A stretch of DNA of 29,348 nt from a virus: the UHGV virus genome UHGV-0299458; one strand, written 5' to 3'. The stretch's first letter is position 1; every line of letters begins with the position of its first letter. Shown here one piece after another: positions 13,446 through 14,244 of the stretch. A program made the position numbers and the translations under genes. The notes under the pieces are model-generated. The model had not been told where the DNA came from and did not search any database. It saw only the letters and a list, made by a program, of their open reading frames with translations.

Positions 13446-13919
13446 TTATTTCAGGCACTGAGTGCGGATATAGTCCTGTGCCCCTTCCAGTTGCTTGTGC
13501 ATCGTCATCAGCCGCTCTCTGAGGGTGAAATAATCCCGTGTAACGGTGTCTGCCAGTTGGGGGCCGGTTGCATTATCCACGCCGGAGGTGGTGGGGGCTT
13601 CACGCACGGAGCCTGGACAGGTGGCGTTGATCCGCAGGCGCTTACGACCAGCGGCAACGTCAGCGCGAAGAGTTTCATTTTCAGTTCTCGCATCGGCTAA
13701 TTCCCTCGAGTATTTTGCATCGAGCGCAGCAACATCGCGCTGGCGCACCTGCATATCAGTAATGGTTGCGTTCGCCAGCTTCAGTTCACTGGCTTTGTTA
13801 TCGCGCTGCGCTTTGTAGGTAATCGCGTTATCACGGTAATGGTCTGTTGCCATCCACAGCGCACCACAGGCCACCAGCAGAATAACGATAAACGCGGAAA
13901 GCATTCGGTTTATGTTCAC
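13446..13919 (-). CDS. Rz: Spanin inner-membrane subunit Rz (i-spanin)
   Basis: 157-aa ORF with N-terminal TM and ...[51 protein letters not shown]...[24 protein letters not shown] matching lambda Rz. Confidence 0.92.
13508..13678 (-). CDS. Rz1: Spanin outer-membrane lipoprotein Rz1 (o-spanin), embedded in the +1 frame of Rz
   Basis: [54 protein letters not shown] matches lambda Rz1 including the lipobox and Pro-rich segment; the ORF track starts 5 codons earlier (13693). Confidence 0.85.
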
Positions 13920-14047
13920 CCCAGCAACCCCGACGAAGACAACATCATCCAGGCCATGGAAAGAAAAAGAGCAACCAGCATTAGTGAAAATGAAATGCCG
14001 ACAATTACACAGAGGATCTTCGCCAGCGTTATGAGTTTGTCTGACAT
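13916..14047 (-). CDS. Small single-pass membrane protein (43 aa), hypothetical
   Basis: ATG at 14045-14047 with strong AGGGAGGA Shine-Dalgarno; [43 protein letters not shown]; stop overlaps the Rz ATG (ATGA coupling). Confidence 0.5.
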
Positions 14048-14061
14048 GCTTAATCCTCCCT

Positions 14062-14244
14062 TCACGATTTCAACGCAATGACCAGTTTTGCCAGCCCATA
14101 CAGCATCGGGGACACAGCAACACCGACCGCCACCCACTTAATGGCAAAAGCCAGTGCTCTGCTGATGTCATCAGTTACAGGCGCTTTCAGTTCAAGGCCA
14201 TTTTTCATAGTCAACCTCAACAGAATTCGTTTACACTTCGCCAT
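14062..14244 (-). CDS. Small membrane protein (60 aa; alternative start at 14208 gives 48 aa), hypothetical
   Basis: RBS-preceded ATGs at 14244 (AAGGGAGA) and 14208 (GAGG); C-terminal hydrophobic helix [22 protein letters not shown]. Confidence 0.45.

Follow-up and report, generated by a model that had tools for sequence, protein, structure and literature searches.

Two small membrane-protein genes between the endolysin and Rz genes of an Escherichia coli prophage: candidate accessory lysis genes

Lysis by phages of Gram-negative bacteria is taught as three steps, carried out by holin, endolysin and spanin, and in lambda and phage 21 the endolysin gene is directly followed by Rz. In the viral genome UHGV-0299458 (29,348 nucleotides; the whole stretch is called the window here), two short open reading frames, ORF A and ORF B, separate the two genes. 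Are these ORFs genes, and if so, do their products take part in lysis? A preliminary description of the locus had suggested lysis modulators resembling antiholins or LysB/LysC, a membrane toxin with a partner, or exclusion factors. We therefore analyzed coding constraint, start sites, RNA structures, homologs and gene contexts of the two ORFs.

Layout of the lysis cassette

By its sequence, the window is an E. coli prophage, and its 1.6-kb stretch from the endolysin gene R to Rz is 100% identical to many E. coli chromosomes. The features of the cassette are listed in Table 1. Endolysin R begins with MNTKIKYGLSAAVLALIAAGAPAP, in which an Ala/Gly-rich, weakly hydrophobic segment follows two Lys residues.

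Table 1. Positions of the lysis genes, the two small ORFs and their candidate expression signals in the window
Feature	Coordinates	Strand	Description
Class II (S21-type) pinholin	15866..16081	-	71 aa; PF04971, E 2e-32; MYQM double-Met N-terminus
DUF1327/YdfR-like ORF	14971..15864	-	297 aa, between holin and endolysin; PF07041, E 4e-40
SAR-type endolysin R	14401..14934	-	177 aa; PF00959
Hairpin with U-rich tail	~14269..14310	-	Terminator scan and folding; 5' element of the ORF A cassette
ORF A, long form	14062..14244	-	60 aa; WP_001446668.1; phrog_1115; dN/dS 0.12; AlphaFold2
Internal Shine-Dalgarno GAGG for ORF A Met13	14215..14218	-	6 nt before Met13
ORF A, short form from Met13	14062..14208	-	48 aa; inferred second start
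Shine-Dalgarno GGGAGG of ORF B	14055..14060	-	7 nt before ATG, right after the ORF A stop
ORF B	13916..14047	-	43 aa; WP_001280932.1; phrog_4906; dN/dS 0.39; AlphaFold2
i-spanin Rz	13446..13919	-	157 aa from GTG; PF03245, E 4.5e-47
o-spanin Rz1, embedded in Rz	13508..13693	-	Lipoprotein, LVVSAC lipobox; ORF list

Several features surround this region. In the 297-aa ORF, the DUF1327/YdfR domain is N-terminal and is followed by about 200 more residues; the PGAP annotation of identical E. coli DNA shows nothing here but a partial pseudogene of 336 nt. A strong hairpin with a run of U (16120-16148, minus strand), resembling a terminator, lies some 40 nt before the start of the holin gene and is probably the late operon's tR'-type terminator. 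Three phage tRNA genes (CAT, Arg-TCG and Arg-TCT; 18085-18334, minus strand) lie downstream of the antiterminator gene. Downstream of Rz is a gene for a TonB_C-domain lipoprotein (12808-13188, minus strand; lipobox LAVGC), at the site that bor occupies in lambda. An Rfam scan of 12500-16500 matched no family on either strand. The prophage anti-sRNAs AgvB and AsxR were rejected as candidates for this site, as both map to the PR' moron site.

ORF B and Rz overlap by GTGA, with the GTG of Rz at 13917-13919 and the TGA of B at 13916-13918; the overlap that had been described at this junction is present, and its sequence is GTGA rather than ATGA. PGAP places the Rz start at the ATG at 13904. However, in one relative (L224) this internal ATG is replaced by ATT and the GTG is kept, and Rz translated from the GTG begins with MNINR, in line with MNR in other Rz proteins. 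Both observations favor the GTG at 13919, which is probably the true Rz start. The Shine-Dalgarno sequence of Rz itself is weak, and the last small ORF ends 0-9 nt from the Rz start, or overlaps it, in all variants seen. Thus, the translational coupling to Rz that had been proposed was supported, through GTGA.

The spacer between the endolysin stop and the ORF A start is 156 nt, longer than the approximately 120 nt first reported, and contains the hairpin and U-rich tail described there. The hairpin of the window is GC-rich (AAAACCCCG..CGAGGUUUU) and, from its sequence, resembles an intrinsic terminator. A GC-rich hairpin of the AAAACCCCG..CGGGGTTTT type was found at about 26 of 30 distinct loci of the A family (see below), 63-100 nt upstream of Met13 of ORF A and usually with a U-rich tail. 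Its inner stem varies among loci with pairing preserved, as judged from individual sequences that were folded singly, since indels occur across loci. The folding energies of the family hairpins range from -13 to -29 kcal/mol, and the copy in the window is weaker (-10.9 kcal/mol, one mismatch and one G-U pair). The hairpin precedes A in lysis and non-lysis contexts alike, which means that it travels with the A gene. Further, in Stx phages that bear an Ant gene, homology to the window ends exactly at the hairpin. A scan that detects consensus sigma-70 sites found no sigma-70-like promoter between the endolysin gene and A.

Coding constraint and the two start sites of ORF A

The ratio dN/dS, calculated by the Nei-Gojobori method among distinct homologous sequences, was 0.12 for ORF A and 0.39 for ORF B in the annotated frames, and 0.22-7.6 in the five other frames. 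The lowest alternative value in each case (0.22 for A, 0.42 for B) came from the antisense frame that shares wobble positions, as expected. Full-length profile matches to PHROGs families were obtained for A (phrog_1115, phrog_4493 and phrog_3246) and B (phrog_4906), with E values of 3.7e-42 and 2.1e-23; all four families carry the annotation 'unknown function'. Because dN/dS is lowest in the annotated frames, both ORFs are annotated by PGAP and both belong to PHROGs families, we concluded that A and B are not chance ORFs but real genes, under purifying selection in their own frames.

The sequence and AlphaFold2 models confirmed the earlier picture of two short ORFs (43 aa, and 60 or 48 aa), each with a Shine-Dalgarno sequence and one hydrophobic helix. 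The models of A and B contain helices only. ORF A is built of a basic amphipathic N-terminal helix, an NGLELKAP linker and a C-terminal membrane helix (modeled helix, residues 23-59), and charge counts leave its topology ambiguous. ORF B is modeled as a helix of residues 2-38 (pLDDT 89) and is predicted to be a single-helix membrane protein of N-in/C-out orientation; Lys4 and Lys10 lie on its N side, and its tail is uncharged. The sequence of B varies in the C-terminal half and hardly at all in the N-terminal half.

ORF A has the Shine-Dalgarno sequence AGGGAG before Met1, and a second potential start at Met13. In the A family, the 12 codons before Met13 encode x-x-Y-K-R-I-L-(L/M)-R-L-T, and an upstream start (ATG, GTG or TTG) is found at -12 or -11 relative to Met13 in about 20 of 23 distinct sequences. 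In the divergent A family, dN/dS was 0.14 for the core and likewise 0.14 for this N-terminal extension in its frame, which argues that the long form is translated. In 21 of the 23, the sequence GAGG lies 6 nt 5' of Met13. Three codons ahead of Met13, Arg is encoded by the rare AGG in 20 of 23 sequences, and the second Arg in the extension is encoded by CGA, AGA or CGC and in none by AGG. The codon preceding the former Arg ends in G in 21 of 23, which together with AGG (or as GAG-G, once) yields GAGG, and the codons that neighbor GAGG vary freely at synonymous sites. Such constraint amid synonymous variation points to a conserved internal ribosome-binding site and implies a second product of 48 aa. 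On this evidence, the ORF A gene appears to make two products, one of about 60 aa and one of 48 aa without the basic amphipathic extension.

The TATAAA that precedes Met13 could be taken for a -10 promoter element. We rejected this reading: the variants TGTAAA, GTTAGG and TATAGC agree with a coding constraint for Tyr-Lys-Arg, and the hexamer has no accompanying -35 element. A small 5-bp hairpin (CCUUG-AGUAAGG-CAAGG; 14262-14278, minus strand) overlaps the Shine-Dalgarno sequence of the long-form start; the Salmonella variant (CCTTGAATAAGGCAAGG) conserves it, and it is reminiscent of sdi in lambda S. In the Salmonella-type variant (L244, ~3950-4040; L253-L256), an 8-codon mini-ORF overlaps the GTG start of the long form by GTGA, and this may be a further layer of translational control over A. 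The Arg-TCT tRNA of the window decodes AGA and AGG, the latter being the near-invariant rare codon kept in ORF A.

Homologs and gene contexts of A and B

Searches of Pfam, NCBIfam and PADLOC with A and B gave no meaningful match, a DUF3930 match (E 0.08) was dismissed as noise, and no holin family of Pfam or NCBIfam matched either protein at E ≤ 1. No homology of A or B to holins, releasin, spanins or defense proteins, and no sequence similarity to the membrane segment of Rz, was found. When A and B were searched by tblastn against 50,697 phage records, only lambdoid Escherichia phages were matched. In the literature, searched by accession, peptide, phage name and topic, neither ORF was found to have been studied, and a survey of Stx-phage lysis cassettes mentions neither.

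The A-B region (335 nt) was covered to at least 80% in 1036 of 5426 complete E. coli genomes, where the label is always hypothetical. Diverged members of the A family, from Salmonella, Yersinia, Klebsiella and metagenomic phages, were recovered by a profile search of 1.84 billion representative proteins. Common to them are the motif MKNGLE-x-x-AP-x-T-x-E-I-S, a helix that begins with A-F-A-I-(R/K), and an end in ALK(S) or IRWW. By these sequence criteria, ORF A is a member of a widespread, uncharacterized family across phages of Enterobacterales.

The gene order in Salmonella is R-A-Rz. In Yersinia enterocolitica, A and Rz are separated by a 1-nt gap in a prophage remnant without holin or endolysin (L240-L243, locus coordinates 4001-4601); this remnant is found on more than 1600 assembly blocks, and a 15-bp perfect hairpin lies ahead of its A gene. 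A scan of IMG/VR added 29 A-family loci with the recurring order holin - endolysin - A - i-spanin. The holins in A-family cassettes are of the PF05106 (lambda S), PF16080 (HP1), PF04971 (S21) and PF05449 (3-TM) types. The endolysins are PF00959 lysozymes, GH19 enzymes, GH108 enzymes with PG_binding_3 and a 140-aa phrog_873 enzyme, and the i-spanins belong to PF03245, DUF2514, phrog_214 and phrog_13. Across several of these i-spanin families, the A stop lies within 0-10 nt of the i-spanin start; at one locus (L278), A is ahead of the holin and not of a spanin. Thus, the synteny comparison that had been proposed placed an A-family gene repeatedly between the endolysin and i-spanin genes of unrelated cassettes. 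Every A-family cassette checked has a recognized holin, and therefore A is not the sole holin there.

About 12 of about 19 distinct A-family contexts are lysis cassettes, and the remainder are prophage ends or tail-gene junctions (gpV-A-gpW, major tail-A-chaperone, and after tail-fiber assembly genes), the latter making up about a third of the distinct contexts. Because lysis genes are only a few per phage genome, this indicates strong enrichment, in a set of loci retrieved by similarity to A or B, so that the counts are neither population frequencies nor an unbiased census. In P2-like myoviruses (L251, L259, L269 and L270; ~1500-3600), a second, lysis-like cargo lies between the tail-fiber assembly gene and the sheath gene and consists of a GH19 + PG_binding_1 endolysin, an A-family gene and two small lipoproteins. 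One holin-A chimera (P0239), from a 554-nt contig, may be an assembly artifact.

Among the loci fetched, the arrangements from R to Rz were R-A-B-Rz, R-Ant-B-Rz, R-A-B-A-D-Rz, R-C-B-A'-D-Rz and R-A-D-Rz, where C and D are paralogs of A. Absence of the ORFs from close relatives with the same cassette had been named beforehand as evidence that would count against a role. In close relatives with the same endolysin and Rz types, an Ant gene indeed stands in place of A, but B is kept. In Qin of K-12, rrrQ and rzpQ overlap by 4 nt with neither A nor B between them, and lambda also has neither ORF. Since A can be exchanged for Ant, and Qin and lambda do without both genes, A and B are accessory and not essential.

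Homologs of ORF B (65-100% identity) occur in 276 phage records, mostly of Stx-converting phages. In most Stx phages, B is directly upstream of Rz and follows the Ant gene (e.g., BP-4795 ORF50). In two protein searches, B was limited to Escherichia and Shigella, with one match in Citrobacter. B-A' fusion proteins of 79-83 aa in E. coli assemblies (P0211, P0214 and P0233) arise by a frameshift at the GTGA junction and may be sequencing errors rather than natural two-helix fusions. B was also considered as a stand-in for a missing antiholin, and this was rejected: most holins at A/B loci begin with MYQM (no Lys), but five begin with MKSM, and there is no clean correlation.

Possible roles of A and B

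The nearest functional analogies appear to be the dual-start holin/antiholin genes and LysA of P2, and the nearest by position at a SAR endolysin is the releasin of Mu. Lambda S105/S107 and phage 21 S68/S71 are encoded by dual-start holin/antiholin genes. Like these, ORF A is a gene for a small membrane protein in a lysis cassette, with an RNA hairpin close to the upstream start; its sequence signals predict two in-frame starts, each with a Shine-Dalgarno sequence, and a longer product with extra basic N-terminal residues. However, the extension of A is 12 residues compared with 2-3 in the dual-start holins, A has a single, C-terminal helix and no Pfam holin match, and its cassettes already possess a recognized holin. 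Both A and B are small proteins with at least one membrane helix encoded in a lysis cassette, as holins and antiholins are, but they lack the charged hydrophilic C-terminal domain of holins: A ends 2-4 residues past its helix (ALKS/IRWW) and B ends in the uncharged SSSGLLG. A likeness of 16 residues between the A helix and pinholin TMD2 (W-x-A-x-G-V..S..L-(F/Y)-G-L; BLASTP E 0.004, shuffle p 0.0035) was too weak to support a mimic of this segment, and the A family also accompanies holins that are not pinholins.

LysA of P2 is a membrane protein encoded between endolysin K and the spanins LysB/LysC and is reported to affect lysis timing. A and B resemble it in lying between endolysin and spanin genes, and LysA is non-essential and thought to modulate timing; unlike A and B, it is much larger and has several membrane segments. 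LysB and LysC themselves are spanins, and a LysB/LysC-like nature, as had been suggested, does not apply to A and B: neither has a periplasmic domain, and the K-I-L before Cys13 of B does not form a lipobox. The releasin gp25 of Mu (DUF2730) has 99 aa, an N-out/C-in topology and a 73-aa acidic cytoplasmic domain (PMC9239132). It shares with A and B a single membrane helix and a gene near that of a SAR endolysin, and it is not itself a holin. The A family, however, also occurs beside non-SAR endolysins of the GH19 and GH108 types, and on size, topology and homology (no DUF2730 match) we rejected the idea that A or B is a releasin.

The morons of lambdoid phages (Juhala et al., 2000, cited in PMC4104026) are additional DNA that separates genes which are neighbors in related phages. 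The classical moron consists of promoter, gene and terminator and is expressed in lysogens. The A cassette resembles a moron in being added DNA between otherwise adjacent genes (rrrQ and rzpQ overlap in Qin, and alternative cargo occurs at the junction) that is mobile among phage types. It differs from the classical moron in that the terminator-type hairpin is upstream of the gene, where a terminator would be expected downstream, and in that no sigma-70-like site for a promoter of its own was detected.

Our preferred interpretation, held with slightly less than even confidence, is that A and B are genuine late-expressed accessory lysis proteins of the inner membrane that tune envelope destruction, with A as a gene of two products. 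A and B would be made from the Q-antiterminated late transcript only, as the lack of a sigma-70-like promoter before A and the hairpin ahead of it in about 26 of 30 loci suggest. They would tune when, or how efficiently, the envelope is destroyed and would be dispensable for lysis as such. The hairpin and A would travel as a unit that has settled repeatedly between endolysin and i-spanin genes. The two forms of A may follow the dual-start logic of holin and antiholin, their ratio or membrane behavior setting a timing or gating step independent of holin class, endolysin type and spanin family; we infer such a step from the unrelated endolysin and spanin neighbors of A, its tight coupling to the spanin and its holin-like two-start design. 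B, coupled in translation to the preceding gene and to Rz, would be made in step with the spanin. The evidence for B is thinner than that for A and consists in its conservation, its coupling to Rz and its presence in functional Stx phages. Of the roles first suggested, that of a lysis modulator is thus retained in part: the family contexts and the holin/antiholin-like start signals support A as a component of lysis cassettes, and both genes are accessory.

The main rival is that the hairpin-A unit and B are mobile cargo of the late operon that collects at insertion-tolerant junctions and has a job unrelated to lysis, such as a late block of superinfection or DNA entry, countering the host envelope response, or altering the host membrane. 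We consider this unlikely on balance, with an appreciable chance of being correct. The A cassette is found with its hairpin also at tail-gene junctions and prophage ends, the R/Rz junction houses the Ant gene in Stx phages, and the small ORFs differ in copy number and order (A-B, C-B-A'-D, A-B-A-D and A-D). However, cargo of this kind does not explain the strong enrichment of A at junctions of endolysin and spanin genes that belong to unrelated families, nor its tight translational coupling to the spanin, and neither a promoter for expression in lysogens nor a PADLOC match was found. A closer tie to lysis is supposed if A and B are spanin-specific accessories, produced at a constant ratio to Rz by translational coupling, whose helices aid insertion of the i-spanin or restrain it until the wall is degraded. 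An A- or B-family ORF does stand immediately before i-spanins of several families (0-10 nt gap), and the A-Rz pair persists in Y. enterocolitica remnants without holin and endolysin genes. Yet no such partner accompanies the spanins of lambda, phage 21 and Qin, which work or exist without one (in part textbook knowledge), A also occurs with no spanin nearby and at L278 precedes a holin, and neither A nor B resembles the Rz membrane segment in sequence, all of which makes this reading doubtful.

Two further explanations would deny the peptides any part in lysis. If A and B were translated leaders that merely bring ribosomes to Rz, the GTGA overlap and the weak Shine-Dalgarno sequence of Rz would be accounted for, but the peptides would be functionless, and this is very improbable given that the amino acids of A are conserved across genera (dN/dS 0.12-0.14), including motifs outside the membrane helix, and that the N-terminal half of B hardly varies. 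Least probable of all is that B, or A-B, is a membrane toxin of the type I toxin-antitoxin or hok kind that stabilizes the prophage. B has the size of a type I toxin (43 aa) and is very hydrophobic, but the antisense RNA and own promoter typical of such systems were not found for A or B: no antisense promoter or terminator was detected, Rfam gave no match on either strand, and B lies among late genes, to which it is coupled, and is present in functional Stx phages. The earlier proposal of a membrane toxin with a partner, or of an exclusion factor, is likewise disfavored by the lack of a promoter, an antisense RNA or a match to a defense family in these searches.

A stronger version of the preferred interpretation, in which A and B tune lysis, is that the A family is an extra class of lysis protein acting between the endolysin and spanin steps with components of any type, B being an Escherichia-specific partner. 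We regard this as rather unlikely, less so than a spanin-specific accessory. The 60- and 48-aa forms of A might then act as a gate or timer sensitive to membrane potential, or as a check on the spanin, and the built-in terminator might be passed only by anti-terminated or strong late transcription.

The existence of A and B is not new, since annotations already list both as hypothetical proteins. What appears to be unreported is that the A family as a whole is linked to lysis cassettes, that it carries a two-start signature and that its cassette has a terminator-first structure. A conserved extra gene at the endolysin/spanin junction would add a regulatory or mechanistic layer to three-step lysis. 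The A-B pair is found in about a fifth of complete E. coli genomes, and most Shiga-toxin phages, in which toxin release is governed by the timing of lysis, carry B in their lysis cassette. Further, the A family would be a clean example of a micro-protein with a conserved internal start, and of a mobile gene cassette of the 'terminator-first' kind.
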